Below are positions 1,233 through 18,378 of a DNA stretch of 24,000 nucleotides, piece after piece. The translations under genes and the position numbers were made by a program. Below the pieces are notes generated by a model. The model worked only from the letters and a program-made list of their open reading frames with translations. It had not been told where the DNA came from and ran no database searches. Numbering within the stretch: position 1 is the first letter of the stretch; every line of letters starts with the position of its first letter. The stretch comes from Arenicella sp. (GTDB lineage: Bacteria > Pseudomonadota > Gammaproteobacteria > Arenicellales > Arenicellaceae): positions 3,567 to 27,566 of the forward strand of contig JBKEFT010000003.1 in assembly GCA_046709645.1 (NCBI GenBank). The letters are read 5' to 3'.

Positions 1233-1242
1233 AGAAAATACT

Positions 1243-1662: not shown

Positions 1663-1703
1663 GCATTGATTTTAAAAACTAACACAACCCAAACGGAGTA
1701 TTT

Positions 1704-2387: not shown

Positions 2388-2450
2388 GCCATGTTGTTCA
2401 AAGGAAGAGGCGCAGAAATTGAGCCCTCTTCATTTTAAAAGGAAATATAA

Positions 2451-3080: not shown

Positions 3081-3591
3081 CAAGAAAAAAACTGACCTGA
3101 TCGATAAAAATGACAAGTGGGCAAAAGAGTCCGCCAATATTTCCTCAAGTGGAGCCGTCAGGTCTACTCAAATTGCCTTTGATTTCGACTTAGACCTCGA
3201 TACGGTTTTGCGGCAAGCCGCGGCCAGAAGGCATATAACTCCAAGTGCGATTATTCGTGAACACTTGGAGCTTACAATCGCTGAGCCTTCTAGAAAACGT
3301 ATTAGTCTTTCGTTTACCGATTCAGAGTTAGCTGAACTGGCAATACGCTACCAGCTTGACCATGTCGACAAGGTAAAAATAAAAAATTGCATAGCAAACG
3401 ATATATCAACGGCATTCTCCGTTGAGGATCGTTCGCAAAGTGACCTTGTTAGTAAAAAAGAAGAATTATTCAAGGTGCAAGAATTATTGAATTGCGTCAA
3501 AACCGAAGTGCAAGCGTTGCAGGCAGCGGCTGATAAAGTAACCAAGACAATTGACACTGCTTGCGCGAAAGATATGAGTAAAGGCCATTGA
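3073..3591 (+). CDS. Hypothetical protein with ribbon-helix-helix-like segment(s) and C-terminal coiled coil
   Basis: I prefer the ATG at 3073 (MISKKK), which overlaps the upstream stop by 8 nt, over the track start at 3052. IAFDFDLDLDTVLRQAAARRHITPSAIIREHLE fits the RHH/CopG strand-helix-helix pattern. A second weaker repeat is ISLSFTDSELAELAIRY. The tail KKEELFKVQELLNCVKTEVQALQAAADKV looks like a coiled coil. Confidence 0.5.
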   Translation: MISKKKTDLIDKNDKWAKESANISSSGAVRSTQIAFDFDLDLDTVLRQAAARRHITPSAIIREHLELTIAEPSRKRISLSFTDSELAELAIRYQLDHVDKVKIKNCIANDISTAFSVEDRSQSDLVSKKEELFKVQELLNCVKTEVQALQAAADKVTKTIDTACAKDMSKGH

Positions 3592-4691
3592 ATGCCCTAA
3601 AGCGCGGAATTGGGTCTTACGCTCGACGCAGGCGAAAGCGGCAACTCACTAAGCATTTATCTTCAAGTATTGGCAAACGAATTGGTTTTTTAATCGCGAT
3701 ATTGTTGGTTCTTATTGCCATCAATTCGATTGCAATGACTCAGTTCGAGAAGATATCACCAGGTGACGCTTTGTGGATGTCATTGGTCACCATCACAACC
3801 GTTGGCTATGGTGATTTTTTTCCAACAACCTTTTGGGGCCGACTGACGACAATCGTTAGTTTATTTATATTTGCCATTTCGGTACTCACAAATTTAATAA
3901 CCGAAGTGATCGAATGGCGTGTAATTATTACAGAGAAGAAGCGCAGAGGCTTCTGGGTATGGAAGAAAATGAACGGACAGATTCAAATTATTAACACACC
4001 AAATAATGATACGGAGCGATACCTTTCAAGACTGCTAACGGAGATAGCTGCAACCGATGAACTAACAGATTTACCAGTTCATTTACTGTCGAGAAAATAT
4101 CCTGAGGGATTACCGCAAAGTTTAGTCGAACAAAAACTGCTTCATAACACTGGAGCTGCCGAGGATATCGCAACCCTACAAAACTCTAATATCGACAAAG
4201 CAAAATATATTTTAATTCTAGCTCGCGACCCCAGTGATACACTCTCTGACAGCGCGACATTCGACGTGTTAAATCAAATTAGATCATTGGGCTCAGAGGC
4301 CAGTATTGTTGCCGAAGCAGTGGCTGACCAAAATAGAGAGCGTTTTCTAAATTCGGGGGCTGACGTCGTTATTCGTCCAATAAGAGCCTACCCAGAATTA
4401 GTAGTTCGTGCGATGGTTCACCCGGGCACTGAACAGGTGCTTGAAGACCTTTTATGCTCAAAAGGTGATTCACTGTATCGCGAAGACATTTCTTTCGATT
4501 CAAAACCATGGATTGACATTGTCACATCAGCGTTAACGGTTGGTTGTGGGACACCTATTGGCTATGTCACTGACGGCAAGGTTATGCTTCAACCTGCCGC
4601 CGATGAAGTTTGTAGTGGGGATGGCATTATGCTGATATCCAAACGAGACACTATCTCTAACATTGATTTGCTTCGTCATAAGCTTTCTTAA
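3588..4691 (+). CDS. Potassium channel protein (2TM pore, TVGYGD filter) with C-terminal RCK/TrkA-like domain
   Basis: The selectivity filter TTVGYGDF lies between two hydrophobic helices. The C-terminal section (ILILARDPSDTLSD...IVAEAVADQNRERFLNSGADVVIRP) resembles an RCK fold. The TTG start overlaps the upstream TGA by 4 nt, which suggests translational coupling. Confidence 0.88.
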   Translation: MNALKRGIGSYARRRRKRQLTKHLSSSIGKRIGFLIAILLVLIAINSIAMTQFEKISPGDALWMSLVTITTVGYGDFFPTTFWGRLTTIVSLFIFAISVLTNLITEVIEWRVIITEKKRRGFWVWKKMNGQIQIINTPNNDTERYLSRLLTEIAATDELTDLPVHLLSRKYPEGLPQSLVEQKLLHNTGAAEDIATLQNSNIDKAKYILILARDPSDTLSDSATFDVLNQIRSLGSEASIVAEAVADQNRERFLNSGADVVIRPIRAYPELVVRAMVHPGTEQVLEDLLCSKGDSLYREDISFDSKPWIDIVTSALTVGCGTPIGYVTDGKVMLQPAADEVCSGDGIMLISKRDTISNIDLLRHKLS

Positions 4692-4728
4692 ATTAGCGTC
4701 CGTAAAATAAATACGCTAAGGAGGTAAG

Positions 4729-5277
4729 TTGGTGCTAAAAAAGAGTTTTCAAATGCCACTCATATTGGTTGGCATTATGTTTGTAGTATTTTTAATCGAC
4801 GTTATTATACCCGGTGACCTCTCTTGGCTGGGGATTAGGCCAAGGTCATTTAGTGGCTTATTCGGCATTTTATTGTCGCCATTCTTGCATGCTAATATTT
4901 TTCATTTACTCTCGAATGCTGTACCTCTTGTAGTGATGGGCGCTATGTTAAATGCTATAGATCAGCGGCTATATCTCTATCGCACCTTCTTATTGGTTGT
5001 TGGCTCCGGGCTTTTAACATGGTTGATCAGTTCTTCCGGCGTGGTAATCGGTGCTTCAGGATTAGCCTTTGCGTATTGGGCGTATCTGATTGTTAATGGC
5101 GTTAGGACGAGAAAAATAAAAGATATTATCATCTCAATTCTGACAATTATTATTTATGGAACCTTGCTTATTAGCCTATTTCGCCATTCGCCAGGCGTTA
5201 GCTGGGCCGGCCATTTTAGTGGCGCCATGGCGGGAGGGTTGTTGGCATGGTATGCGCAGCCTAAATCGAGTGCTTAA
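4729..5277 (+). CDS. Rhomboid family intramembrane serine protease
   Basis: 182 aa and polytopic. It has the catalytic GxSG motif (VIGASGLAFAY), the partner His in AGHFSGAMAGG, and the HxxxN motif (HANIFHLLSN). A strong AGGAGG precedes the TTG/GTG start at 4729/4732. Confidence 0.85.
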   Translation: MVLKKSFQMPLILVGIMFVVFLIDVIIPGDLSWLGIRPRSFSGLFGILLSPFLHANIFHLLSNAVPLVVMGAMLNAIDQRLYLYRTFLLVVGSGLLTWLISSSGVVIGASGLAFAYWAYLIVNGVRTRKIKDIIISILTIIIYGTLLISLFRHSPGVSWAGHFSGAMAGGLLAWYAQPKSSA

Positions 5278-5461: not shown

Positions 5462-6307
5462 ATGCATACTAACGATTCATTGGTTCGACTGGGTCGAATC
5501 GTTGTTGCCGAATCATCAAGAACGATTATTCCCCCCTACGGAAACGCTCTCGCTATTTTTGTCACAAGCCGTGAGTTCGGACTGATCCTGTCAAAACGTC
5601 GTGAACCAATCGGCCATCACAACGCTAATCAGCGGACTGCCTAACTGCAGTACGGGAACGGGTGGTTAGTGCAAAGCACGAGCGAGATTGCCGGTGACTC
5701 TAGTTCGGGAACTAACTCGCTTTACAGGGCAATTAATTGACTACAAGGTGTCGGATAAATGGCGCTGGCAAGGACGTAGGGTGCGCATAGTCGACGGCAC
5801 GACAGTGACATTTCCCGACACGCCAGAAAACCAGAATCGGTATCCGCAGCCACGCTCCTAAAAGCCGGGTATCGGCTTCCCGATGTGTCGGGTGGTTGCA
5901 ATCACCTGCCTTTCAAGCGGCGCTCTACTGGACGCCGCGATGTGTCCTGTGAAGGGCAAAGGAAATGATGAACAGTCTCTGCTTCGCACTATGATAAAAA
6001 CTTTTGAAAACAATGATGTATTGTTGGGAGATGCCTTTTATGCAACCTATTTCTTGATCGCTCAATTACAGGAAATGGGCGTTGACGGTGTGTTTGAACA
6101 ACATGGATCTCGACGTCGCAGCACGGACTTTCGACAAGGCAAAAGACTCGGCAGCAAGGATCATTTAATCGTGATCAAACGACCAAAATCGCCACCTAAC
6201 TGGATGAGCCAGAAACAGTTCGAAGCGATGCCCGAGACGAGCTAAACGTCAAAGGAAAGGTCTTGGTGACTACGCTTTGTTGTCCTGTAACGGCGACTAA
6301 AGAACAG
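5462..6307 (+). pseudogene. IS4-family DDE transposase, degraded (multiple in-frame stops and frameshifts, 3-prime truncated)
   Basis: Stitching frames by hand gives ...IIPPYGNALAIFVT / AVSSD*SCQNVVNQSAITTLISGLPNCSTGTGG*CKARARLPVTLVREL...WRWQGRRVRIVDGTTVTFPDTPENQNRYPQPRS*KPGIGFPMCRVVAI...LLGDAFY...DFRQGKRLGSKDHLI... / ELNVKGKVLVTTL. In-frame stops are at 5583 (TGA), 5667 (TAG) and 5859 (TAA), with frameshifts near 5565 and 6240. The DDE D residues are present (VDGTT, GDAFY), but the YxxRWxIE segment is missing. Confidence 0.75.
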
Positions 6308-7423
6308 CCAGTAGCGCAGCATGTTTTTGTTGCCTTCTAATGTCACCATTTGTCGCGGTAGTCGTTCGTCAGCTGGGCATCGGTATTCGTCATCAGCCTC
6401 GATGTAAATAAAATCCCGACGGTCGTACAGCCCTTTCTTTATATTGCCCGAAGTTAACGACTTGGGCACGTAAGGCGTGATGCCCTCATCGACGGTCGCC
6501 TTGATCTCTTCCATGTTGTAGTAACCTCGGTCTGCAATCACTTCGAGGTTTTCAGTGCCCGTTGCTTCTCTCGCTTCCTTCGCCGTTCGGGTTAGTTGTC
6601 GTCGGTCGCTCATGGCCATCGTGACGTCATGTGCGACGATTAGGTGGTGCTTACTATCGACTGCCGCTTGTACGTTGTAGCCTACTGTGCCTGAGCTTCG
6701 GGCATTGGTGGACATAGCTCTGGCATCAGGATCGGTCAGCGAAATTTGCTTATCGGGTGCTGCATTAACAAGCGCCTCGATCGCTTTAACCTCACTCATC
6801 TGACGCTCGAGTGACTCCAACTGCTTATGGATGTGTTCGGTCTTGGCTTTTGGGATTGCTTGTTCCTGGCGGTCGAAGCTTGCCAACTGCCCGAGGTGCC
6901 GATCTAGGCTTGTATTGATCGCCTCGATGCGCCGCTTCACCTTGGCTCTCGTAAAGTTACGGTCTCTATTATTAACCGCCTTGAACCGACTACCGTCAAT
7001 AGCAATCAGCGATTCCGCGAACAGGTTCATTTGCTTGCAGATCATCATAAACTGCCGACAGGAGGCTTTAATCGCCGAACCGTTATCTTTGCGAAAGTCA
7101 GCGATTGTTGTGAAGTCTGGAGCCAGTCGATCCAACAACCACATCAGCTCAGGATTGCGGTTAGCTTCGCGTTCTAGTCGACGGCTTGATTGAACCTTGT
7201 TGAGGTAACCATAAATGTATAACTTCAACATAGTCCTTGGGTGATACGCAGGCCTTCCAGTAGCCTTGGGTTCTGCCGAAGCAAAACCTAGCTCAAACTA
7301 TTTTAGCTTATTAACAAACGCATCTATAAACCGAACTGGATTCTCTTCCGTGATGTAATCCTCTATGCGTTGAGGGAATAATGTCGCCTGTTGGCGATGT
7401 TGCCCTTCGATAAAACGACTCAT
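6308..7423 (-). pseudogene. IS1182-family (IS5-like) transposase, in-frame TAG at codon 42 and 3-prime truncated
   Basis: From the ATG at 7423 the translation reads MSRFIEGQHRQQATLFPQRIEDYITEENPVRFIDAFVNKLK*FELGFASAEPKATGRPAYHPRTMLKLYIYGYLNKVQSSRRLERE... This is the typical IS1182 N-terminus, and it is in frame with the 6242..7231 ORF. The TAG is at 7298-7300. Recognisable similarity ends at ...MLRYW (6308), where the IS4 remnant abuts. The Cys-rich C-terminal part expected for this family is absent. Confidence 0.75.
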
Positions 7424-7461
7424 AAATCACTCCAGCTATCTGATGGAGTAATTATACCATT

Positions 7462-7743
7462 TTGGTCGTTTTCACACAGCCTGAGCATAAAGTGGACACT
7501 GATGATGTTATACATATTAATTATCGACTTGCCACTGACCAACAAGGTAAAGGTCATGCTGTTGAGTCGACATTTGGTGTATTAGATTTTGCAAAAAAAT
7601 CCTTAAAGCTTAAAGCTGTATACGCACTAATAGAGTCAGCGAATATCAGCTCGGTTAAAGTAGTAGACAGAACAGGCTTCCAATTTATTAAATCGTCAGT
7701 ATCTCGTCGCTTTAAAATCGACATATATCAAGTGGTTCTATAA
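7462..7743 (+). pseudogene. GNAT (RimJ/RimL-like) N-acetyltransferase, C-terminal fragment truncated by the IS
   Basis: INYRLATDQQGKGHAVESTFGVLDFAKKSLKLKAVYALIESANISSVKVVDRTGFQF matches the GNAT motif A/B region (Q/RxxGxG/A ... N..S..v.ek.GF). There is no N-terminal half, and the IS1182-like end lies immediately upstream. Confidence 0.55.
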
Positions 7744-7771
7744 AGCGAGATATAACAAGCCATTCTAATAG

Positions 7772-7831
7772 GACAAATAACAGTTGGCTATTTACTCCTT
7801 CGCCGCTTATGTTAGCCAACTATTATTTGTC
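7772..7831. repeat. 19-bp inverted repeat (1 mismatch) with 22-nt spacer
   Basis: GACAAATAACAGTTGGCTA (7772-7790) pairs with TAGCCAACTATTATTTGTC (7813-7831). It lies 29 nt after the GNAT fragment stop, and no T-run follows. Confidence 0.7.
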
Positions 7832-7994
7832 TCGTAATCGGGCATTAAGCACACACAGGGATATCTATTTGTGACCAAAGCTACACCGATATCGGTATAT
7901 AAAGTACTCGAGAAAGTAACGTTTCTAAGTAATCGCAAGTGCTATGCTAGGTGCTCAATTATCTTTACAGCTATTTTCCTGCGGTTTAAGCTAA

Positions 7995-8720
7995 ATGCAA
8001 GAATCTTTCCTATCCATAAGTGCTAATGATGAGTGCCTGATTTATGGTGTTTTAAATCAAGTGCAACCGTCGAATAGACTCATCATTTTTGTTCATGGTC
8101 TGACGGGTGAAAAGGAGAACCATCTCTACTACAATGCTGCGCGTTTTTTCCCAAGGAATGGTTGTCATTCTTACCGCTATGATCTTTTTTCTAATGAAGT
8201 AAATGGACGGAAATTGGTTGACTGCACACTCGCCACATTCAGTGATGATTTAAATCGAGTGTTGAGCTATTTTTCGAACTCATATAAACAAATTCATGTT
8301 GTTGGGCACAGCATCGGCGGCTGTGTGGCGTTGAACGCAAAGCAATCGCTTATTTGCAGTTTTGTCTTGTGGGACACAGGGCTACAGAATGGCTCAAGCG
8401 ATTCAGGGGCTTTTGTGTTTGATGAGCATACCAAGTTGTTTATCGCCGATCTCAAAATACGTTATTTTTTGTCACCTAAGTTGATTGAAGAACGTGCACA
8501 ACAAGGTGGTGACGTGGTTAAGAAAATACGGCGGCCGGTTAAATTAATCTTCGCAGGCAATACCAATATTAAGGATTCATGGAATGATAATCTTTGCCAC
8601 ATAAAACCGTACCACGAAGTGCTTACTATTGAAGGTGCCGGGCATGGATTTAACGAATTTGGTAAAAATGATGAGTTGTTTGATGAAACCTTAAATTGGC
8701 TTAAGGCGTTTAAACACTAA
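7995..8720 (+). CDS. Alpha/beta hydrolase fold protein
   Basis: It has LIIFVHGLTGEKENH (oxyanion-region HG), the nucleophile elbow VVGHSIGG (GxSxG), and a C-terminal EGAGHGF containing a candidate catalytic His. Confidence 0.8.
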   Translation: MQESFLSISANDECLIYGVLNQVQPSNRLIIFVHGLTGEKENHLYYNAARFFPRNGCHSYRYDLFSNEVNGRKLVDCTLATFSDDLNRVLSYFSNSYKQIHVVGHSIGGCVALNAKQSLICSFVLWDTGLQNGSSDSGAFVFDEHTKLFIADLKIRYFLSPKLIEERAQQGGDVVKKIRRPVKLIFAGNTNIKDSWNDNLCHIKPYHEVLTIEGAGHGFNEFGKNDELFDETLNWLKAFKH

Positions 8721-8746
8721 TTACTTGAAAAACTGTAAATCTAGAT

Positions 8747-9664
8747 ATGAAATTTTCGGTCATTATAACCTTGTACAACAAGGCCCCTTACATAAGTCGT
8801 ACGCTTATGTCAGTGCTTAGTCAAAGTAAAAAACCGTATGAAATAGTAATAGTTGATGATGTTAGTACGGATAATAGCTTGGAGGTTGTTAACGCTACTT
8901 TGGCACAAAACTCCGGGCTGTGTGAGGGTGTGAAGGTGCAGTTGATTCAGCATTCTAAAAATGGTGGTCCTAGTGTGTCAAGAAACACGGCACTCAAAGC
9001 TGTTAGTGGTGATTATGTGTTTCTATTGGATGCAGATGATGAATACCATAAAGGAGTGTTTGCGTCTGCTGAACGTATTTTTGAGTTTCATGCCCCCAGT
9101 CTTTTGTTCCTTCAGTTTGAGAGAGACGTTGGCGGACGTGTGTTGCCAATTATCGATAGGCTTAACTCAATCACTCAGCCCTTAGGTAGCGGTGTTTATT
9201 ATCTTCGCAATATTGTTGCTGCCTTTGGCCATGATAGCTTTGGTATGAATGGCAGCAGTGTTGTGTGCAAACGCAGTGCTCTAGAAGGTGTATTTTACCG
9301 AGAAAACCTCAACTGCTTTGAAGGTCTAGAGTATTGGTATCGAGTAGTCAAAGCGTTGCCAGAGGTTGAAAGAACTGCATGCCTGCTTTCGGGTGTTCAA
9401 GTCACTATTCATTTAACTGAAAACAGTGTTTCTCGAAGGTTGGTTGATAATGGTGGTGAAATTTATTTACCCGCGCAGTTCTCTCAGTTTCGAGGCAGCG
9501 ATGACATAGATGACCAACAATTGAGAAAGCGTATTTATACTATTTGGATACGTAATGCGTTCTTAAAATTACCGCATTGGTATCAACGTGCGATTTTCAT
9601 TTGGCGTTTTAAGCGACAAGTAATTGAGAATACATACCTTAACTGGCGCTACCGTCTAAATTAG
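8747..9664 (+). CDS. Family 2 glycosyltransferase (GT2)
   Basis: FSVIITLYNKAPYISRTLMSVLSQSKKPYEIVIVDDVSTDNS and FLLDADDEY (DxD) are present. It is a paralog of the convergent GT2 at 9683-10603. Confidence 0.9.
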   Translation: MKFSVIITLYNKAPYISRTLMSVLSQSKKPYEIVIVDDVSTDNSLEVVNATLAQNSGLCEGVKVQLIQHSKNGGPSVSRNTALKAVSGDYVFLLDADDEYHKGVFASAERIFEFHAPSLLFLQFERDVGGRVLPIIDRLNSITQPLGSGVYYLRNIVAAFGHDSFGMNGSSVVCKRSALEGVFYRENLNCFEGLEYWYRVVKALPEVERTACLLSGVQVTIHLTENSVSRRLVDNGGEIYLPAQFSQFRGSDDIDDQQLRKRIYTIWIRNAFLKLPHWYQRAIFIWRFKRQVIENTYLNWRYRLN

Positions 9665-9682
9665 TTTGTCGCTTAGTTAGAT

Positions 9683-10603
9683 TTAATTTGGCAAGCGCTC
9701 TTTGTAGAATAAAAGCTTTAAATAGCGCTTGTATTGCCAAGCAAATTTGAGCTTGTCGTAGGTGCTAGTCAATCTCGAATAACTGTTACTAAACCAAATT
9801 TTGGCTACACGATGCTGCAGTTGTAGTTCGTATTTGTCGGTGCTGCTTGTATAGCGACGCAATACTTTTGGGTGTTCTATTTCAGTGATGCTAAGCGGCT
9901 TGCGTATTAAGCTTTCGGACACGGCGTGCACTATATGGTAATCACGTAATAGGTAATAGGCCTTACCCCCAATATCAGAAACGTTCCTGATAATGCGAAA
10001 CCAAAAGTCGATGCCTTCATATACTTTAGCGCTTTCATCGTAGCGAAGGTTTTCGACAATGGTTTTTCTTACGGCTACGTTGCTGCCGGGCCCAACGGGG
10101 TAACTTCTATCGTATACAAATTCTAAAGGATTTGTCATGACGCAAGCTTCGTCATCGTAGGCTGTAAGCCAACCGGGGTGTTCTTGCTTAGGGGGCATTA
10201 AAATATTGCTTGGTAATTTACGATAAGCAAAAATCACTACGTCGGCAGAGGCGTTGAATGCGAGGTATTGAATCTTTTGCAATAACTTAGGTTTGTACTC
10301 ATCGTCCGCGTCTAGAAATAAGAGATAATCACCGCGAGCCACTTCAATCCCTCGATTACGTGAAGCTCCTGGCCCTAAATTATTCTTGTTTTGTAAGAAT
10401 GTGACGTTTATTGTTGGTCGTTGTCTTTGTAACTTTTTTATATGTTCCTTAGCAATACTGAAGCTATAGTCTGTACTTACGTCATCAACAATAATAAGTT
10501 CAAACGGCGGATAAGTTTGAGCGTAGACCGAGTCCAATGCGCGCCTTATATGCTGTGCTTTATTGTATAAAGGCACCACAATTGAAAATTTAATTACTGT
10601 CAT
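9683..10603 (-). CDS. Family 2 glycosyltransferase (GT2), last gene of the minus-strand operon
   Basis: FSIVVPLYNKAQHIRRALDSVYAQTYPPFELIIVDDVSTDYS and LFLDADDEY are present. Its start overlaps the upstream stop in an ATGA junction. Confidence 0.9.
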   Translation of the reverse strand: MTVIKFSIVVPLYNKAQHIRRALDSVYAQTYPPFELIIVDDVSTDYSFSIAKEHIKKLQRQRPTINVTFLQNKNNLGPGASRNRGIEVARGDYLLFLDADDEYKPKLLQKIQYLAFNASADVVIFAYRKLPSNILMPPKQEHPGWLTAYDDEACVMTNPLEFVYDRSYPVGPGSNVAVRKTIVENLRYDESAKVYEGIDFWFRIIRNVSDIGGKAYYLLRDYHIVHAVSESLIRKPLSITEIEHPKVLRRYTSSTDKYELQLQHRVAKIWFSNSYSRLTSTYDKLKFAWQYKRYLKLLFYKERLPN

Positions 10604-11586
10604 GCAGCGCTCAATATTTGTTGGAAAGCCTTAATTGTTTCTGGCTCTATATTGGTTTTCTTTAAGACGGTGTTAATGGAGTAAAAGCCACCGGGGCAAC
10701 ACGTGTTTATTTCAGTGATTAAGCGTTTGCCATTGTCACTTTCAAGTGTGTCGATACCGAACATGGAAATGCCTTCTGCCTTAAGCAATGGGGCGAGTTG
10801 ATTTACAGCATCGTACTCCTCGGCATTTAATTCGGTTGAATTTACTTTGCCACCGCTAGAAACATTACACAGCCAGCTGTCTTGAGGAATCCTAAGGCTA
10901 GCACCTACCACTTTACCATTTATGACTAAAATTCTTTTGTCACCGTTGACATATTGCGGCAAGTATTGCATTGCCAAATAAGTTTGGCCTGAACTGAATC
11001 TTTCGTTAAGCACTGCTTCAAGTTCCTTTCTGCGAAACGCATTAGAACCCTCAAAACAGATTTCATTGTTGATCAGGATGTTGGTCTTGCCACCGTAGCC
11101 ATACAGAGGCTTTAAAACGGCTGGGCTTTGGTGCAAAAATTGCATGACATCATCTGCGCAATGACAGAGTAGCATTGGTGGGCATAAGTTGGGGGTGTTG
11201 AGTAGAAACTCTTTTGATTCCGTGCGTAGTATGCTTTCAACGCCATTGATAAAGTCTGCTTGTGTGAAAGAGCGGCCAATCTTTTCAAGCGTTGATTCGC
11301 ATATGGGAAGAACCCGTAGGCAAACCCAATCAAATTCGTGATTACTTATTTCTAAAGAGCCCTCTGTAAAGCAAGAATCTTTGTTTTCAAATACCGTATT
11401 TGTGCTTGGGCGAACGGTATGAAGAGATTGAAAGTTGTTAGAACTCAGTTTCAATGTATTCTGAGCTGTGCCTATGCTGGCAACATAAACCTCTAATCCC
11501 TTAATGGCGGAGGCCCATTTCGTTAGTAAATACACTGAGTCGAAATATCGGTGGTGACGGTGGTCTGTGATAAAGAGTAATTTCAT
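10600..11586 (-). CDS. Prokaryotic glutathione synthetase (GshB)-like ATP-grasp ligase
   Basis: I prefer the ATG at 11586 (MKLLFITDH...); the track start at 11691 would overlap the upstream gene by 95 nt. It is collinear with E. coli GshB as I recall it. [16 protein letters not shown] aligns with [41 protein letters not shown] aligns with [54 protein letters not shown]...[10 protein letters not shown]...[12 protein letters not shown] aligns with [29 protein letters not shown]...GLIFVGLDIIGDRLTEINVTSPT. Confidence 0.85.
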   Translation of the reverse strand: [328 protein letters not shown]

Positions 11587-11596
11587 ATCGTTAGAC

Positions 11597-12934
11597 CTAG
11601 CGCAATGCCTGGTATAGCGTGTCGAAAGTATTGTTTGGTGTGGCTTCGGCGCTGGGCAAAAAGATGGCTTGGCCTTCGCCACTACCAACATTTACACACT
11701 CTTGTTCAGAGGCTCTAAACATACCGACGCCAAAATACTCTGAATCAAAGCATGGCAGTGAACCAACAATATTCATTGGGCCACTTTGTTGCCCGTTCCT
11801 GTAATGCAAAATCGGAGTCGTCGAGTGTGCGAAATATTCTTGCGCCATATACTCATTTTTACCACTTAGTAATACGTTTTCCCATTGTTTTTGAGTACAC
11901 GCTGCGCCAATAAAAAGGTCTAACCCTCGGCCGCCACTGGATTTTTTAAGTACCCATTTATTCTTATTAGCCAAGACCATTTCACATTCTTCATCGATAC
12001 TTAATTCAGCGCTATTTAGCAGGTAGCTTTGCAGTTGAAAATGTTCTGTTTTGGATAGATAAGGCTGCATTATGTCTCGGTCTGCAAGCACCGTTAATAT
12101 GCGTTTATCGTGTACCAGTATTAAGGTGCGAACGTCGTTAATATAATTGCTGGACTCTATAAGTTTATCGATAACGCAGGGAGCAAAACTGAACAGCTCT
12201 TCACGATCGATTTCGAGTATGAAGTTATTTGCATTTACTGATTTTGAACTCTTACCCTGTGCCGTATTAACAATAATATCTTCACCATCAATTGCCAACT
12301 GATCAGGGCGAGCATTAATACAATGTCCCCCAATTCTGTTGAACTGAGCGAGGAAAAATTGACTCTCGCCACCAGTTTCGCTTTTGGCAACGCGTACCAA
12401 TGTTTGATTTGTAGGGAAGCGTGACAGCATGGTTGTGCATATTTTTTGGTTTAAATCATAGCGCTGATAATCATTCCACGATAAGTAATGTGCGTTTTCA
12501 GCCGCTGAGTTCACCCATTGGCTAATAGTCATTCCGTTTAATGGGAAGCGCGCATTTATTTCGCAAATTTTCACTTTGTTGTCACGCCCAAAAATCAGGT
12601 CTGGCCGAATGGTGCCCATTTTGTATGGGCGTTCCTCAGCGCGTTCTAAAAAACGATTGAAGCGTGATGGCAACGGCATTCTCGCGCGAATGCGCTCATC
12701 TCTAATGTAAGACTCTGCTACATAACTAACTGCTTTGAGTAGCAACTCTGCCAGTCTGTGTAAGTCATGCGAAAGACTATTGGGCACGACTAATGGATAG
12801 GGACTGAAGCAGACTTCTTTATACGGCAAAAATTGATTGATCGCGTATATGCGCGATAGAAATTCGGCCTGATGCAAACTGAAATCATTGCTTACAGCAT
12901 TGGGTGTGTTGGCCGCGATTTTAGTTTGCTCCAT
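11597..12934 (-). CDS. ATP-grasp ligase resembling eukaryotic-type glutathione synthetase (GSH_synth_ATP-like)
   Basis: By eye it is collinear with human GS. TIRPDLIFGRDNKVKICEINARFPLNG aligns with LHRSDYMF...LKQIEINTISASFGG. NKWVLKKSSGGRGLDLFIG aligns with SRFVLKPQREGGGNNLYG. EYMAQEYFAH aligns with SYILMEKIEP. EYFGVGMFRAS aligns with ELGIFGVYVR. VGSGEGQAIFLPS aligns with GGVAAGVAVLDNP. Confidence 0.6.
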   Translation of the reverse strand: MEQTKIAANTPNAVSNDFSLHQAEFLSRIYAINQFLPYKEVCFSPYPLVVPNSLSHDLHRLAELLLKAVSYVAESYIRDERIRARMPLPSRFNRFLERAEERPYKMGTIRPDLIFGRDNKVKICEINARFPLNGMTISQWVNSAAENAHYLSWNDYQRYDLNQKICTTMLSRFPTNQTLVRVAKSETGGESQFFLAQFNRIGGHCINARPDQLAIDGEDIIVNTAQGKSSKSVNANNFILEIDREELFSFAPCVIDKLIESSNYINDVRTLILVHDKRILTVLADRDIMQPYLSKTEHFQLQSYLLNSAELSIDEECEMVLANKNKWVLKKSSGGRGLDLFIGAACTQKQWENVLLSGKNEYMAQEYFAHSTTPILHYRNGQQSGPMNIVGSLPCFDSEYFGVGMFRASEQECVNVGSGEGQAIFLPSAEATPNNTFDTLYQALR

Positions 12935-12940
12935 AACGCT

Positions 12941-13804
12941 TTATGCTTGAGCTAGAAGGGTTATCGGATAGCAGTTTTTCTTTAAGTCGTTATTAAGCGT
13001 GGCCATGACTGACGCTTTTTGCGATAAGTATTCGCTAAAAATATCCACCAAGTCATACTCTTCTATTTTCTTTTCGAGCAATTCTAGTAGGTCGTCTAAT
13101 GCTTGTAGCGTTTCATTGAAATGATTTTTTTCGGTGCCTTTTGTATGCACATCAATCCAGAGTAAACAGCGACGCCGTTCTTTGTTGTCTAAGCTTGTAG
13201 TTTGCTGTAACCATTGGTCAAACAAAGGCAGAATAAACTCGACTTCGCCATGGGTATAAACTTCGTGTATCAGAGTTACCAAAAAGCCCATTAGTAGGTC
13301 CGGCTCTCTAAGCATAAACCGGTCTTTCCATCGCTTAAAGTTGGCTCCCTCATTGAGCAAGTATTTGCGAGACAACCATGAATCGTCTTCGCAAATTATC
13401 GTTGCCATTTCATAGTAAAGATCGGAGTGAAGCTTGCCGCCTTTAGCGCCGAGATCTTCATCGGTAACACGATTTAAATGTGACAATACATTTAAATATT
13501 GTCTGTTGATGCGAGGGCTCGGTTCGTGGCTGTGCAGCTTACGCCAGCGCAAGGTTAAGCGATTACAGAAACCGGATAAGCCGACGGCGCTGTTATTGGT
13601 CATACTCCAATTGTGGAAAAAACGGTTTATACATGCTTTTGATGCCACAGAAGAAGGTAACGAACTGGATAATGTGCAGAAAGCTTCTTCAATAAGATCT
13701 AGTTTGTGCTCTGAATTGTCAAATGCCTGCTGTAATGATGTACGAATGAGTGGGTGTGCAACTTCTTGAACAACCTCAGAGATTAAAGTAATTAACTTAG
13801 TCAT
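12941..13804 (-). CDS. Hypothetical protein, possibly heme-oxygenase-like fold (DUF3050 / iron-containing redox enzyme-like); first gene of the operon
   Basis: 287 aa, predicted all-helical. Spaced His/Glu/Asp clusters occur in DEDLGAKGGKLHSDLYYEM, LIHEVYTHGEVEFILPLF and WIDVHTKGTEKNHFNE. These recall the ligand helices of HO-like di-metal enzymes and the DUF3050 pattern (GEESD..GG.SHFELY; RHIELDGDEH). The assignment is weak. Confidence 0.35.
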   Translation of the reverse strand: MTKLITLISEVVQEVAHPLIRTSLQQAFDNSEHKLDLIEEAFCTLSSSLPSSVASKACINRFFHNWSMTNNSAVGLSGFCNRLTLRWRKLHSHEPSPRINRQYLNVLSHLNRVTDEDLGAKGGKLHSDLYYEMATIICEDDSWLSRKYLLNEGANFKRWKDRFMLREPDLLMGFLVTLIHEVYTHGEVEFILPLFDQWLQQTTSLDNKERRRCLLWIDVHTKGTEKNHFNETLQALDDLLELLEKKIEEYDLVDIFSEYLSQKASVMATLNNDLKKNCYPITLLAQA

Positions 13805-13903
13805 GAATAGTTCCGGAATTATATTTATTAAAGTGCTTGTTACTCTTTCGAATTAACCTTGAAGAATCTTACTTCCGAGCATATCGGATTAATATTACCC
13901 TCC

Positions 13904-13932
13904 ATTATACCATCTATTTCAGCTTGAAATAG
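13904..13932 (-). promoter_or_regulatory. Candidate extended -10 promoter (TGgTATAAT) with an adjacent perfect palindrome, upstream of the minus-strand operon
   Basis: On the minus strand, ATGGTATAAT has its TATAAT at 13909-13904, about 100 nt upstream of the ATG at 13804. Immediately upstream, CTATTTCA-gct-TGAAATAG (13914-13932) occupies the -35 region. Confidence 0.4.
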
Positions 13933-13961
13933 TATAGGCAGGATAAAACACATACGGTCTT

Positions 13962-14174
13962 TTATTCCGCCATCTGAAAGATAAAGCTATAGTCGCTGGT
14001 GTAGGGTTTCGGATGCTTCAGGCCGGAAGACGGGTTCAAACTGGCAAACGAGTGGCAATCGATACAGATTTTATTCTGCGCATAGGTTTCCAGTACCGAA
14101 TTAGCCACCGGAAAAGCGTCTAGGAAGATACTCAAAAATAATGGCTGTTCATTCGTAAGGCAAGGAAAAGGCGA
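13962..14174 (-). pseudogene. C-terminal remnant of a CxxCH-motif protein (no start codon)
   Basis: The open frame reads ...FLSIFLDAFPVANSVLETYAQNKICIDCHSFASLNPSSGLKHPKPYTSDYSFIFQMAE*. It contains a c-type heme-binding-like CIDCH motif. It is bounded upstream by a TGA at 14175-14177 and has no Met. Confidence 0.3.
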
Positions 14175-14292
14175 TCATGAGTTCTGGGAGTCTCCAAATG
14201 GTGCTAGGTTTCCAGTTGACGATGGAATGAAATCTAGACACACAGACAATGCTGTTCTGAAACAGGCGGGGATTGATTACAAAATTTCGTAA
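14086..14292 (+). pseudogene. HicA-like mRNA interferase toxin remnant (no start codon, no hicB partner)
   Basis: The frame opens after the TAG at 14083 and reads VSSTELATGKASRKILKNNGCSFVRQGKGDHEFWESPNGARFPVDDGMKSRHTDNAVLKQAGIDYKIS*. This fits the HicA pattern (L.k.G...vRq.GSH..f ... ilKqAGi). There is no ATG/GTG/TTG before the internal Met. Confidence 0.5.
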
Positions 14293-14303
14293 GTAATTAG
14301 AAG

Positions 14304-14325
14304 GATCGCTTTAGCGGTCTTTTTT
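14304..14325 (+). terminator. Rho-independent terminator-like hairpin
   Basis: GATCGC-ttta-GCGGTC is a 6-bp stem with one G-T pair, followed by TTTTTTATT. It starts 12 nt after the HicA-like stop. Confidence 0.4.
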
Positions 14326-14501
14326 ATTGGCTTTTGTTAATGGCTTAGGGTTGGCATTTTGAATTGATCTTGAGCCTCAAAAAAACTAATGTTTTTCTGA
14401 TTCGCGGCCCACCTGTAGCCCAAACGAAAAAAACCGCAAGCCAATCGTTAGATTAATTTGCGATTTTCAGACTTAAACTCTTTTAAATCAACACATTGAA
14501 A

Positions 14502-14548
14502 TGGCTCCCTGACCAAGACTCGAACTTGGAATCCAATGATTAACAGTC
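14502..14548 (-). other. tRNA-Asn(GTT) 3-prime fragment (anticodon loop to CCA); probable att scar of an integrative element
   Basis: The minus strand reads GACTGTTAATCATTGGATTCCAAGTTCGAGTCTTGGTCAGGGAGCCA. It is position-for-position collinear with the 3-prime 47 nt of E. coli tRNA-Asn (GACTGTTAATCCGTATGTCACTGGTTCGAGTCCAGTCAGAGGAGCCA). The T-arm is CCAAG-TTCGAGT-CTTGG. The 5-prime acceptor strand, D-arm and 5-prime anticodon stem are absent. Confidence 0.8.
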
Positions 14549-14851
14549 TGTAAGGAAAACTATAAACTTATACTAATCAACGACTTATAAGGCTAATTGG
14601 TGATAGCGCCTATTCCTTTCTTATCAATAACTTAGGCTAATTAAGGCTGATTTATAAAAACTTAGCAATGTACCCAGAATTGTACCCCGTTTAAGTCTCA
14701 GAATTGGGTTTCATGGATTATAGGGTAGAGTAATCGAATGTTTTGGATCTAGCTTTCTGCTCCATAAATAGCTATAGTGTATGTCTAGATTTGCATGAAT
14801 TTTGCATTTATATTCTTGCATTACTGTATCTAAGAATGTGAAGATATAAAG

Positions 14852-15448
14852 ATGAACAAGCTTAACCAACTCAAGAAGTACCTACGTGCAGGAAAAGTTT
14901 ACCGCCGCTCCGATTTAGAGCAGTGGTCTTGTGCTGTGGATCGCCACTTAAGCGAGCTTGTCGAGGAAGGCCGCCTTCAGAAGCTCTCTGGTGGGCTTTA
15001 TTACTGCCCCAAAATGAGCGACTTTGGTGTTGTGCCCCCGAAAGATGAGGATGTAGTTAAAGCATTTTTGAAAGATGATCGTTTCCTGCTGACTTCGCCC
15101 AATGCGTATAACTCTCTCGGTGTAGGCTCTACACAGCTTTACAATAAGACAGTGGTCTATAATCACAAACGCCACGGCAAATACCAATTTGGAAACCGAG
15201 AATTCGAGTTCAAAAAGAAACCCCACTTCCCCAAAGAGTTAACGCCTGAGTTCTTGTTAGTTGACCTTGTCAACAATCTAAAGCATGTCGCAGAAGACAG
15301 AGACGCGTTGCTTTCTAATGTGCGGGAGAGAGTAGCCGACTTTGATATAAAGCGGCTTAAGAGGGCCGTTCGAGACTATGGTGGTGTCGCGGCTAAAAAA
15401 ATATTTTCTCCCATGCTTGATCAAGCATCGTTAGCGCATGTCGCTTGA
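14852..15448 (+). CDS. AbiEi-family antitoxin (type IV TA system)
   Basis: The N-terminal winged-helix-like signature is RAGKVYRRSDLEQW...LSELVEEGRLQKLSGGLYYCP, the typical AbiEi pattern G.l.r..rGvY. It overlaps the start of an AbiEii-family gene by 11 nt. Confidence 0.8.
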   Translation: MNKLNQLKKYLRAGKVYRRSDLEQWSCAVDRHLSELVEEGRLQKLSGGLYYCPKMSDFGVVPPKDEDVVKAFLKDDRFLLTSPNAYNSLGVGSTQLYNKTVVYNHKRHGKYQFGNREFEFKKKPHFPKELTPEFLLVDLVNNLKHVAEDRDALLSNVRERVADFDIKRLKRAVRDYGGVAAKKIFSPMLDQASLAHVA

Positions 15449-16435
15449 TTTCCTTCATAACCATAAAGAGTTCAGTTCACTGCTTCGGATTGTCGCTGAT
15501 GAGCAGAGGATTGATCCTTATCTTATAGAAAAGGACTACTGGAGGACTACTGGGGCATGCACTCTCTTTATGGCTTGCAAGAAATGGGGTTTAGCTTTGA
15601 ATTGAAAGGCGGTACTTCCTTGTCCAAGGGGTTTGAAATCATCAATCGATTTTCTGAAGATATTGATATTCGTATCGAGCCGCCCTCTGAGCTCGGCGTA
15701 AACCCCAACCCCAAATCGACTAAACAGAATCAAATTTTTGGCCGTAAGGCTTTCTACGATTGGCTAGCCCGCAACATTCACATTGATGGATTAGTCAGTG
15801 TTGGGCGTGATCATGCATTTGATGATGAGCGTTACTATCGTAGTGGAGGGATTCGTCTACATTATCCTATTCAAACCGACAGTCTCGCCGACATCAAAGC
15901 GGTTGTTCTCTTGGAAGTCGGGTTTGATGACGTAACACCAAACATTCCAAAAAAAATCTCTTCCTGGGCATATGATTTTGCAAATGACAAAGTAGAAATT
16001 GTCGATAATCGTGCTCTAAATGTTGACCGCTATCACCCAGGCTACACCTTTGTAGAGAAGCTCCAGACAATTTCAACAAAGTTTCGCAAACAGCAAGAAG
16101 ATGGATCATTCCCTGTTAATTTCATGCGGCACTATTATGATGTCTACTGCTTACTTGAGGTTCCAGAAGTCAAGGCATTCATCGGCACTGATAAATACCA
16201 TGCACACAAGGAAAAAAGATTTCCTATTGCTGACAATCAGATACTCAAGGAGAATGAAGCCTTTGTTCTGAATGATTCTGCTACATACGACTTGCTAAAG
16301 AGTGCATATAGAAGATCAGAGAGTCTTTACTACCGGGAACAACCCGATTTTGATGAGCTGCATGCTTGTTCTGAGAAGTGCGGTCATGAGAGCGGGAATA
16401 TAGTGAAACGTGAGCGGTGCGCAATTACTATTTAG
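15438..16435 (+). pseudogene. AbiEii/AbiGii-family nucleotidyltransferase toxin, frameshifted by an 11-bp tandem duplication
   Basis: From the ATG at 15438 the frame reads MSLDFLHNHKEFSSLLRIVADEQRIDPYLIEKDYW and then shifts. The 15557..16435 ORF carries the hallmark FELKGGTSLSKGFEIINRFSEDIDIRIEP. Deleting one copy of AGGACTACTGG restores ...IEKDYWGMHSLYGLQEMGFSFELKGGTS... as a single 328-codon frame (987 nt). Confidence 0.85.
15532..15553. repeat. Perfect 11-bp tandem duplication AGGACTACTGG x2 inside abiEii
   Basis: 15532-15542 and 15543-15553 are identical when read directly from the sequence. Confidence 0.95.
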
Positions 16436-16659: not shown

Positions 16660-16962
16660 TTGGGGCTTGTAGTGAACGGGCTGCAAGGCCACTCATGTGG
16701 CTCATCGTTTGATGACCTACTTGAAGAAACGGGTGATTCTGCCGAGGTAAGCGCGGTGGCGATTAAGCGTGTTGTCGCTTGGCAGGTTTTACAAAAAATG
16801 GAAAAAGAAAACATCTCAAAAACGCACATGGCTAAGCTTATGGATACAAGTCGTTCAGCGCTTGATCGGCTACTTGACCCGACCAATACGTCGGTGACTT
16901 TGCACACGTTAGACAGCGCCGCGAAGGCTATCGGTAAGACGTTACACGTACAACTCGTTTAA
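16660..16962 (+). CDS. XRE-family HTH antitoxin (HigA-like), apparently orphan
   Basis: GSSFDDLLEETGDSAEVSAVAIKRVVAWQVLQKMEKENISKTHMAKLMDTSRSALDRLLDPTNTSVTLHTLDSAAKAIGKTLHVQLV matches a widespread antitoxin family normally encoded just downstream of a RelE/HigB-type toxin. The real start is probably the GTG at 16672 or the TTG at 16660; there is no ATG. Confidence 0.7.
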   Translation: MGLVVNGLQGHSCGSSFDDLLEETGDSAEVSAVAIKRVVAWQVLQKMEKENISKTHMAKLMDTSRSALDRLLDPTNTSVTLHTLDSAAKAIGKTLHVQLV

Positions 16963-17493: not shown

Positions 17494-18378
17494 ATGGATA
17501 AATTAACTTATGAATTATTAGGCCTTTGCAAGCATAACCACGATGGCTCTCGTGGCACCCAAGCGCAAAGAAAAAAGCAACTAAAACTGTTTGCCGAACA
17601 ACTCAAAGAGCTGGGCTACAGACATATGGGTGCTAAATCGCTTGGGACTAGGCATGTTAAAGCGCTCGTAGATTATTGGCTTACCAAGCCATCAAAGTCG
17701 ACCAATAAATTGATATCCCCTAGCACCATTAAGAACAGAATGGCAACCCTGAGATGGTGGGCGCGCAAGATCAATAAATCGGGAGTAACTCCAAAAGATA
17801 ATAGAGCGCTCGGCATACCAAACCGGCAACGGCTGCCGAGCTACAACAAAGCATTTAAATTGACCGATCATCAAATTAGTAAGTTGCCTGACCATCTAAA
17901 GATTAGCCTTCGCTTACAGCAAGAATTTGGATTGAGGCGAGAGGAGGCCGCCAAATTTATTCCAGCTATGGCGATCAAAGAAGACCGCGTTGAACTTAAG
18001 AGGTCTTGGACTAAAGGAGGCCGCGCTCGATCAATGCCTATTACCACTGCTGGTCAACGAGAATTGCTTAAAGAGATTGGAGCGCTAAATCAAAATGCAT
18101 TGCTGATTCCCGCAAAGATAAATTACAGACACTATCTCTCACATAGAGATCATCACTTGGGTATTGCTGGAATTCGGCAGGCACATGGGTTGCGCTATTA
18201 CTATGCACAGCAGCGCTACATTGTATTAAGTAACGGTCTTATGCCGCCAATGTTATGTGACGGTGAAAAACCAACACTGACTCAAGCAGAGCAAGAACTG
18301 GATTTGAAAGCGAGGCTAATCGTTTCTCAAGTATTAGGCCATGACAGAATTAGTGTCACGTGCAACTATTTGGGTTAG
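17494..18378 (+). CDS. Tyrosine recombinase / integrase domain protein (Integrase_1-like family)
   Basis: Catalytic signature residues are present in family order: FGLRREEAAKF (Arg I), WTKGGRARSMPI (Lys), AHGLRYYYAQQRY (His-x-x-Arg) and LGHDRISVTCNYLG (His ... Tyr nucleophile). A GGAG lies 8 nt upstream of the ATG. Confidence 0.85.
   Translation: MDKLTYELLGLCKHNHDGSRGTQAQRKKQLKLFAEQLKELGYRHMGAKSLGTRHVKALVDYWLTKPSKSTNKLISPSTIKNRMATLRWWARKINKSGVTPKDNRALGIPNRQRLPSYNKAFKLTDHQISKLPDHLKISLRLQQEFGLRREEAAKFIPAMAIKEDRVELKRSWTKGGRARSMPITTAGQRELLKEIGALNQNALLIPAKINYRHYLSHRDHHLGIAGIRQAHGLRYYYAQQRYIVLSNGLMPPMLCDGEKPTLTQAEQELDLKARLIVSQVLGHDRISVTCNYLG

Follow-up and report, generated by a model that had tools for sequence, protein, structure and literature searches.

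A putative pseudo-peptide module related to the E-64 minimal cassette in a 24,000-nucleotide stretch of an Arenicella genome

The enzymes Cp1A, Cp1B and Cp1D form the minimal cassette for the protease inhibitor E-64 and occur in fungi and some cyanobacteria (PMC12568646). In this pathway the ATP-grasp ligase Cp1B joins trans-epoxysuccinate to an L-amino acid; its acyl substrates are C4 dicarboxylates, and a cp1 cluster without the epoxidase yields malate and fumarate analogues (PMC12568646). The cyanobacterial enzyme MfaA has been experimentally verified to convert fumarate to epoxysuccinate. Dapdiamide is made with the amide-bond synthetase DdaG, the ATP-grasp ligase DdaF and the epoxidase DdaC, an Fe(II)/alpha-ketoglutarate (Fe/aKG) enzyme (PMC12568646). 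The mangotoxin mbo operon encodes the heme-oxygenase-like di-metal oxidase (HDO) MboA, the reductase MboB, the ATP-grasp ligases MboC/D, and MboE, and is a precedent for a tripeptide made by an HDO together with ATP-grasp ligases (PMC13185094). Here we describe six genes at positions 7995-13804 of a 24,000-nucleotide stretch from Arenicella sp. (assembly GCA_046709645.1, contig JBKEFT010000003.1, positions 3,567 to 27,566; this whole stretch is called the window below). Judged by its sequence, the block is a variant, particular to its lineage, of a conserved bacterial cassette that shares its ancestry with the E-64 minimal cassette. On balance, it appears to be a mobile, E-64-related module for a glycosylated pseudo-peptide that is assembled independently of nonribosomal peptide synthetases (NRPS).

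Computation yielded the folds, the catalytic or ligand residues conserved in A and B, the family of each of the six proteins, the gene order with its conservation across loci, and the homology to E-64 enzymes. Gene lengths are given in amino acids (aa).

12941 to 13804, minus strand: gene A, HDO of an uncharacterised family, 287 aa (fold model and homologue alignment)
11597 to 12934, minus strand: gene B, Cp1B/AnkG-family ATP-grasp ligase (PF28486, AnkG_N), 445 aa (PDB match, family profile, fold)
10600 to 11586, minus strand: gene C, GshB/RimK-type ATP-grasp ligase, 328 aa (Pfam, TIGR01380 score)
9683 to 10603, minus strand: gene D, family 2 glycosyltransferase (GT2), 306 aa (Glycos_transf_2)
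8747 to 9664, plus strand: gene E, second GT2 and paralogue of D, convergent with the operon, 305 aa (Glycos_transf_2)
7995 to 8720, plus strand: gene H, alpha/beta-fold hydrolase, co-directional with E, 241 aa (Abhydrolase_6)

The ligase encoded by gene B connects the block to E-64. A single-sequence phmmer search matched B to Cp1B (PDB 9cjn) with an E-value of 3.7e-8, and the B family profile matched 9cjn over its full length (positions 14-408 to 49-508) with an E-value of 3.8e-45. PF28486 is found in precomputed annotation both on B homologues and on the window's B itself. The AlphaFold2 model of B has a predicted local distance difference test score (pLDDT) of 92. Its top Foldseek match is Cp1B 9cjn (E 5e-25, TM 0.79), followed by the soybean, human, yeast and potato (homo)glutathione synthetases (E 1e-14 to 1e-16); further matches are glutathionylspermidine (Gsp) synthetase and YgiC/YjfC. 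A preliminary description of this DNA had called the 445-aa protein a ligase of the eukaryotic glutathione synthetase type, which is right at the level of the three-domain ATP-grasp fold. Mutation of R139, D141, E163 or N165 abolishes or attenuates Cp1B activity (PMC12568646). These residues align with R110, D112, E125 and N127 of B (chain numbering in 9cjn is +15 relative to the residue numbers of that paper); R110, D112 and E125 are invariant in 45 homologues, and position 127 is N or G. B is thus a Cp1B homologue with conserved catalytic residues, and by analogy it is predicted to catalyze the ADP-forming ligation of a non-alpha-amino carboxylic acid to an L-amino acid.

Relatives of B were sought in 185,579 species genomes, one genome per species. 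They were found in 139 species-representative genomes, from which 80 loci were kept; a total of 82 loci were classified by tblastn, independent of gene calling. The architectures, in which ANL denotes an adenylating enzyme of about 390 aa, are as follows.

A-B-GT2-ANL: 65 of 82 loci, 3 of these with an extra GT2 upstream
A-B-C-GT2 with a convergent GT2-H pair (window type): 4 of 82 loci (L001, L010, L011, L012)
TauD-B-ANL without GT2: 2 of 82 loci (L031, Saprospiraceae; L067, Aureispira)
Partial: 11 of 82 loci

The operon had been described as an orphan, which this distribution contradicts, and its triad of heme-oxygenase-like, eukaryotic-glutathione-synthetase-like and GshB-like genes recurs in the four window-type loci. 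Among the carriers are Pedobacter, Flavobacterium, Tenacibaculum, Mucilaginibacter, Fluviicola, Azospirillaceae, Chromobacterium, Lysobacterales, Acidobacteriota and Glaciecola, and the nearest genomic relative of B is in an Arenicella metagenome-assembled genome (MAG; L009). Proteins of the A and B families co-occur on contigs. The window-type loci group as a single clade in a neighbour-joining tree of B. The flanks of the six-gene block differ among the four window-type loci, and because the neighbours differ in each, the block moves as a unit. The unit is accordingly larger than the four genes originally proposed and includes E and H (7995-9664).

Besides the 65 A-B-GT2-ANL loci, 5 others have the ANL enzyme, which is absent from the window. 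It has weak AMP-binding, PaaK and DVU_1553-family matches and shares 26% identity over 241 aa (E 6e-16) with Cp2D, the amide-bond synthetase of the E-64-like cp2 cluster. At the A position, L031 and L067 encode a TauD-type protein with 29% identity to MfaA (E 6e-21), and in the neighbour-joining tree their B proteins nest inside the HDO-type Bacteroidota clade. On the strength of the Cp1B, Cp2D and MfaA homologies, the bacterial B-family cassettes and the E-64 cassette belong to the same evolutionary and logical group. Two kinds of non-orthologous replacement occur at fixed positions, HDO for Fe/aKG oxygenase and ANL enzyme for C. As far as sequences can tell, these swaps are good evidence that the roles of the three positions, namely oxidise, ligate and ligate, are conserved. 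The two Bacteroidota MAGs in question (L031, 7117-10358; L067, 575-3697) carry a full E-64-like trio of MfaA-like, Cp1B-like and Cp1D-like ANL proteins without a glycosyltransferase, and the products of this trio may be epoxysuccinyl peptides.

Compared with the E-64/circinamide cassettes (fungal cp1/cp2 and cyanobacterial mfa), the window shares a full-length Cp1B homologue with the same fold and catalytic residues and the order of oxygenase, ATP-grasp ligase and second ligase; a Cp2D homologue occurs in at least 65 related loci. Of the E-64 parts, the window has the Cp1B-type ligase but neither an Fe(II)/aKG epoxysuccinate synthase nor an ANL amide-bond synthetase. An HDO stands in place of the former and the ATP-grasp ligase C in place of the latter, two GT2s and a hydrolase are added, and the window gives no sign of an epoxysuccinyl warhead, an agmatine or a polyamine unit. 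Dapdiamide is likewise an NRPS-independent pseudo-tripeptide with a unit derived from a C4 dicarboxylate, two differing stand-alone ligases and one oxygenase. It differs in containing no sugars, and no homology to its enzymes was shown for A, C or the GT2s; the one DdaF match, a weak one (2.6e-7), was to a protein encoded beside an A homologue in Burkholderia. No published description of the cassette was found in the literature searched, including searches for an HDO with phosphonoalanine and for an HDO with an amide-bond synthetase and a glycosyltransferase. The statement that the gene combination is not any described pathway therefore needs qualification: the gene set of the window itself is undescribed in that literature, but B is a Cp1B homologue and the cassette is kin to the E-64 pathway.

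The four minus-strand genes are tightly packed. A and B are separated by 6 nucleotides (nt; 12935-12940), B and C by 10 nt, and C and D overlap by 4 nt (10600-10603) in the sequence ATGA, with the D start over the C stop. The 10-nt gap results from placing the C start at the internal ATG at 11586, which gives 328 aa, instead of at 11691, where the mechanical open reading frame (ORF) opens; with this start the spacings reported earlier were reproduced. The 328-aa product is an independent gene call in another assembly with an identical contig (L089) and is identical to a database protein (P0209) labelled Arenicella sp. All four genes have strong homologues (at least 179 matches for A, 88 for B, about 30 close ones for C, and the Pfam GT2 match of D at 2.4e-33), so they are real genes and not chance ORFs. 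A consensus scan of 7800-14900 found no terminator-like site on the minus strand. Judged from the sequence, A to D are likely co-transcribed as one transcript, which fits both the tight packing and the absence of such a site.

Gene A matched no Pfam family at E-values up to 1, no NCBIfam family and no PDB sequence, and curated HDO sequence models such as Haem_oxygenas_2 and DUF3050 gave no match. Its AlphaFold2 model, built on 60 homologues, is all-helical (pLDDT 94; predicted TM score, pTM, 0.91). The best 36 Foldseek PDB matches all have the heme-oxygenase-like fold, mostly as di-metal oxidases (probability 1.0, TM 0.44-0.64, E from 3.5e-3). They include the CADD-like 3b5p, PolF, CT610, BesC, UndA, HrmI and RohS, with TenA homologues and PqqC among them. 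In the 60 homologues D115/E116/D117, H126, H180/E181, H185, E187, E189, H220, E225 and H228 are invariant. This set of histidines and carboxylates is the pattern expected for an HDO metal site (three His and three carboxylates), and the E-to-H spacing of 10 matches that of SznF. R82, R112 and K263 are invariant in the same alignment and would suit an acidic substrate. On the basis of the model, A is an HDO by fold and is predicted to carry out O2-dependent di-iron (or Fe/Mn) catalysis. The proposal that the first gene is heme-oxygenase-like is therefore upheld, and the models of A and B show the heme-oxygenase-like and ATP-grasp folds, respectively, where failure to find these folds had been named as grounds against the preliminary reading as a whole.

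Burkholderia members of the A family appear as 'Uncharacterized protein' in the supplementary sequence file of an HDO survey, where they carry InterPro IPR016084 (PMC13185094). The family has thus already been catalogued and has no characterised member. A relationship of A to the mangotoxin enzyme MboA was ruled out (hhalign probability 0.2%). The mbo operon resembles the window in combining an HDO with two stand-alone ATP-grasp ligases, and it yields a product of tripeptide size without an NRPS. Apart from the unrelated sequences of A and MboA, the two differ in several respects: the window lacks an MboB-type reductase and a deiminase, its ligases come from other ATP-grasp families than those of mbo, and mbo has no glycosyltransferases.

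Gene C matches the Pfam families GSH-S_ATP (1.3e-25) and RimK (4.7e-11), both above their cut-offs, and has no Pfam match to GSH-S_N (PF02951). Its score against GshB equivalogs is 104 bits, compared with cut-offs of 299 (TIGR01380) and 272 (NF003573), and its best PDB match is E. coli GshB (1gsa, 2e-10). A database search with C returned about 30 clusters at E-values of at most 1e-41, all without PF02951, followed by a sharp break; true GshBs with PF02951 come up only at about 1e-13. Compared with the GshB/RimK/LysX/MptN/CofF enzymes, C has the same GSH-S_ATP/RimK domain, with E. coli GshB as its nearest solved relative, but it falls below every equivalog cut-off, lacks GSH-S_N and a GshA partner, and has its own subfamily of about 30 clusters. 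By its sequence, C is assigned to a separate subfamily that annotation pipelines mislabel as 'glutathione synthase'. Its earlier comparison with bacterial GshB is supported in that C is GshB-like, without being a true GshB.

Distant relatives of C (34-38% identity) occur in Bacteroidota within a conserved gene set (L090, 5554-10705; L092, 2924-10083). The set encodes a 481-aa protein with sub-threshold ATP-grasp matches, the C-like ligase, an AstE/AspA-type amidohydrolase and an Orn/Arg decarboxylase; L092 additionally has an agmatinase and a deoxyhypusine-synthase-like gene. These genes may constitute a polyamine-conjugate pathway. The 481-aa protein was rejected as a B-family ligase (hhalign probability 0.7%).

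A scan of the window's ORFs found no GshA-like protein, and no NRPS, polyketide synthase or transporter near the operon, in agreement with the preliminary description. Ordinary glutathione synthesis, which that description had also discounted, was rejected since C is below the GshB cut-offs, has no GSH-S_N and lacks a GshA partner. A more general low-molecular-weight thiol, either a glutathione variant or a bacillithiol-like compound with a sugar scaffold, de-acetylation and Cys/Gly ligation, is very improbable. In its favor are the 'glutathione synthase' label of C, the eukaryotic glutathione synthetase fold of B and the fact that Bacteroidota, to which many carriers belong, often lack glutathione. 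A third form of the cassette (L093 from Endothiovibrio, and L094) has a divergent family 4 glycosyltransferase (GT4), a PIG-L de-N-acetylase and a probable ATP-grasp protein beside A-B-ANL-GT2. The models nearest to these enzymes include those of bacillithiol synthesis (BshB1 for PIG-L, 1.5e-15; GlcNAc-PG synthase, or BshA as second-best, for the GT4, 1e-10), but all scores are far below the cut-offs. In addition, no GshA, BshC or MshC accompanies the cassette, known thiol pathways make no use of an O2-dependent oxidase, and a core redox buffer would not be expected from a gene set on accessory DNA that was found in only 139 of 185,579 species genomes. Orthology between C and the 318-aa gene of the L093 variant was considered and is unsupported (BLASTP E 0.086, only sub-threshold ATP-grasp matches).

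D and E match Glycos_transf_2 at 2.4e-33 (115.9 bits) and 3.3e-27 (95.9 bits), respectively, with a Pfam cut-off of 23.3, so that the identification of the last operon gene as a GT2 stands. The two share 30% identity over their full length (E 3e-44), and both carry the DxD-type motif LDADDEY in their translations. D reached no NCBIfam equivalog; its best PDB matches are GalT1, chondroitin synthase and PglI. H matches Abhydrolase_6 (3.2e-9) and Abhydrolase_1 (2e-7), with a readable nucleophile elbow, GHSIGG. The E and H pair is kept in all window-type relatives (L001, L010, L008/L011 and L012) and is located between A and B in L012. In the Reinekea MAG (L008/L011, 11189-12126), E is broken into two ORFs (139 and 149 aa), which makes it a pseudogene unless the assembly is in error. 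Other loci contain extra enzymes: Tenacibaculum has a second GT2 with a metallophosphoesterase, Azospirillaceae have a second GT2 with an ATP-grasp-like protein, and L012 has a GT11-like protein.

The synthesis of bacillithiol and of mycothiol uses a GT4 GlcNAc transferase and a PIG-L/LmbE de-N-acetylase to free a sugar amine, which a ligase then acylates. The window resembles these pathways in having a glycosyltransferase and hydrolase pair beside ligases, and in L093/L094 the pair is GT4 and PIG-L itself. It differs in pairing a GT2 with an alpha/beta hydrolase, in the presence of an HDO and a Cp1B-type ligase, and in the lack of a Cys ligase; the GT4 and PIG-L scores are also far below the Bsh/Msh cut-offs. 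A glycosyltransferase with a de-acylating hydrolase thus accompanies the cassette in two unrelated forms (GT4 with PIG-L, and E with H), which by analogy suggests an amino-sugar glycoside as the amine partner of one of the ligases.

Phosphonoalanine is an aspartate analogue, and members of the A family bear on the nature of the acid through clusters that appear to make it. HDOs with about 41% identity to A are found without B in Pseudomonas (L002, L003) and Burkholderia cenocepacia (L006, L007), at about positions 6700-13700 of each locus. Their clusters encode a LysR regulator, MFS transporters, an aspartate-aminotransferase-like enzyme, a second HDO paralogue (24% identity to A) and a true phosphoenolpyruvate (PEP) mutase (416 bits, cut-off 320). 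A class II fumarase is present in the Burkholderia clusters only (707 bits, above the TIGR00979 cut-off). A divergent ATP-grasp ligase was also observed near the Burkholderia cluster. PEP mutase with such an aminotransferase is a predicted route to phosphonoalanine (PMC8942020), and by their gene content the four loci look like an uncharacterised phosphonoalanine-type phosphonate cluster with two HDOs. In Tenacibaculum (L040, 5585-6226), a 213-aa homologue of protein-isoaspartate methyltransferase lies directly upstream of A; four loci related to L040 have a protein of 212-214 aa at the same position, noted by size only. Taken together, the phosphonoalanine clusters, the C4 substrates of Cp1B and the L040 methyltransferase point circumstantially, and by analogy, to a C4-dicarboxylate or aspartate-like unit as the acid substrate.

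From these data we infer the substrates, the order of steps, the role of the sugar, and the product and its bioactivity as follows. The substrate of the di-iron HDO A would be a small acid from primary metabolism, most likely a C4 dicarboxylate or an aspartate-like amino acid, which A would oxidise with O2; alternatively, A might act late, on the assembled product. B would phosphorylate a carboxylate of the acid and join it to an amino acid through the amine of the latter, forming a pseudo-dipeptide. C would then activate the new terminal carboxylate as an acyl phosphate and add a third unit, an amine that may be an amino sugar, a step that would fall to the Cp1D-like adenylating enzyme in most relatives. 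The two GT2s and the hydrolase would supply or attach the sugar part. In one version, E and H would make a de-acylated (amino-)sugar glycoside whose amine serves as the ligase nucleophile, and D would add a further sugar.

Several points weigh against a glycosylated pseudo-peptide. The substrate assignments for the whole cassette are all by analogy. A has no sequence relation to any characterised HDO, and the E-values of its Foldseek matches are weak (~3e-3), though the matches agree. H is a generic alpha/beta hydrolase, and de-N-acetylation is not the commonest activity of this fold. GT2 genes are present in 72 of the 77 HDO-bearing loci and in 0 of the 2 TauD-type loci, a co-variation of HDO and GT2 that the proposed scheme leaves unexplained. 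Secreted bioactive metabolites usually come with an exporter, a regulator or a resistance gene, and none of these is conserved with the cassette. D and E are nearest to enzymes of lipid-linked glycans (WcaA, PglI, TuaG, EpsD/E), and some variants have up to three glycosyltransferases, which suits a glycan better than a simple glycoside.

The last of these points favor the main rival, which we consider possible but unlikely. Here a lipid-linked or cell-surface glycan would receive sugars, for instance a uronic acid or an amino sugar, from the GT2s, the ligases would amidate it with amino acids, the HDO would tailor the appended residue, and the product would belong to the envelope. The Campylobacter capsule enzyme Cj1438, a glycosyltransferase and ATP-grasp amidoligase, offers a parallel. 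The window has two GT2s, and relatives have extra glycosyltransferases (the GT11-like protein of L012 and the second GT2s of Tenacibaculum and Azospirillaceae). Among named enzymes, D and E best match those that assemble undecaprenyl-pyrophosphate-linked glycans, their tails are rich in aromatic and basic residues and, from the translations, could bind membranes, and the lack of a conserved exporter would also fit. However, the 82 loci show no conserved gene for a flippase, a polymerase, a chain-length regulator, an initiating transferase or sugar-nucleotide supply, and the cassette stands alone in unrelated neighbourhoods. B and its ANL partner are homologous to small-molecule ligases, and two loci combine B, ANL and an epoxysuccinate-synthase homologue without any glycosyltransferase. 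The glycosylated pseudo-peptide is therefore preferred. The two products proposed in the preliminary description, an oxidised ATP-grasp-built peptide or amide and an amino-acid-decorated glycan, remain the best and the second-best readings.

RimK, LysX and tubulin-tyrosine ligase act on peptide or protein C-termini, and SunS is a peptide glycosyltransferase. By comparison with these enzymes, the ligases might act on a ribosomal peptide or a protein C-terminus, with glycosylation by the GT2 and oxidation of a side chain by the HDO, an interpretation that we regard as distinctly improbable. C falls in the RimK/LysX/GshB group, D and E have weak SunS-family matches (6e-6 and 1e-4), and the mangotoxin HDO works on a peptide (PMC13185094). 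In 16 Flavobacterium loci (for example L053, 4966-6971), a radical-SAM/SPASM enzyme of about 475 aa and a small methyltransferase always precede A, and these genes, like the isoaspartate methyltransferase homologue of L040, could be read in the same sense. They are, however, additions to the cassette in particular lineages and do not occur in the window type. Neither a precursor-peptide gene nor a carrier protein is conserved, and in the window no convincing precursor-peptide ORF was found upstream of A, where the largest ORF within 1 kb encodes 57 aa. The only characterised relative of B takes free small acids and free amino acids (PMC12568646). The 57-aa ORF itself (13962-14135, minus strand), which lies in the 1-kb gap preceding the operon, ends ...KICIDCHSFASL... 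and contains a CxxCH heme-binding motif; it looks like what is left of the end of a c-type cytochrome gene.

A bolder form of the pseudo-peptide interpretation is tentative and, in our estimation, rather unlikely. In this form, A-family HDOs would be warhead-forming or acid-tailoring oxidases that replace the Fe/aKG epoxysuccinate synthase, the cassette would make a new class of glycosylated pseudo-peptides, and the HDO family would perform the equivalent step on phosphonoalanine in the phosphonate clusters of Pseudomonas and Burkholderia. If so, the glycosylated pseudo-peptides might be covalent protease inhibitors or antimetabolites, encoded by an HDO, Cp1B-like ligase, GT2 and second-ligase cassette in soil and marine Bacteroidota, Azospirillaceae and some Gammaproteobacteria.

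The six-gene block is embedded in mosaic accessory DNA, and its G+C content (0.40-0.43) is near that of its surroundings. To the left, DDE-transposase ORFs lie in opposite orientation at 5883-7231 (120 aa, plus strand; 329 aa, minus strand) in an insertion sequence (IS) region of about 5500-7500 with a G+C content of 0.50 (vs ~0.42), followed by a truncated GNAT acetyltransferase of 93 aa (7462-7743). These IS fragments and the truncated gene (5883-7743) are debris that marks the left edge of the accessory region, consistent with the IS debris noted previously. To the right, about 1 kb without genes is followed by an AbiEi/AbiEii pair and an integrase, and this gap holds one further feature.

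14502 to 14546, minus strand: tRNA-Asn(GTT) 3' fragment, read directly; a context feature outside the pathway

The fragment comprises the CTGTTAA anticodon loop (GTT, Asn), the T-arm CCAAG/TTCGAGT/CTTGG, and the acceptor TCAGGGA with GCCA; this pattern has a single occurrence in the window and none in 100 shuffles. ARAGORN and Rfam found no intact tRNA or regulatory RNA in the window, and neither the matching full tRNA nor the other island border was found. The fragment is probably an integration scar; the tRNA-Asn attachment scar claimed earlier is accordingly plausible as a 3' fragment, with no intact tRNA beside it.

Directly adjoining the cluster are the AbiEi antitoxin (PADLOC 1.8e-90) and the AbiEii toxin (7.9e-56) at 14852-16435, followed by a helix-turn-helix gene (16660-16962) and the integrase (17494-18378). 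A role of the block in anti-phage defence, considered for its AbiE neighbour in the island, is unsupported, as PADLOC matches none of the six proteins and only AbiEi/AbiEii. At 39-5277, a plus-strand run encodes a spermidine-synthase-like protein (397 aa), a DUF2170 protein, a PspA/IM30-family protein, two unknown proteins, a K+ channel with TrkA-N and a rhomboid protease. The DUF2170 and PspA-like pair resembles the E. coli yjfIJ region, which adjoins the ATP-grasp gene yjfC.

Stand-alone ligase pathways, such as those of E-64, dapdiamide and mangotoxin, are compact sources of bioactive pseudo-peptides and of amide-forming biocatalysts. A large unstudied bacterial cassette is now tied to the recently solved E-64 pathway. 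Within it the ligation core is kept and the accessories are swapped: HDO or Fe/aKG oxygenase, ANL enzyme or ATP-grasp ligase, and GT2 with alpha/beta hydrolase or GT4 with PIG-L. Its unusual features are the uncharacterised HDO family and this modular swapping of every accessory enzyme. The cassette offers an entry point to the chemistry of an HDO family that has no characterised member, a short list of directly testable enzymes, and a possible link between A-family HDOs and the phosphonoalanine-type phosphonate clusters of Pseudomonas and Burkholderia. If the product were instead a cell-surface decoration, the cluster would represent a new route to amino-acid-amidated glycans.

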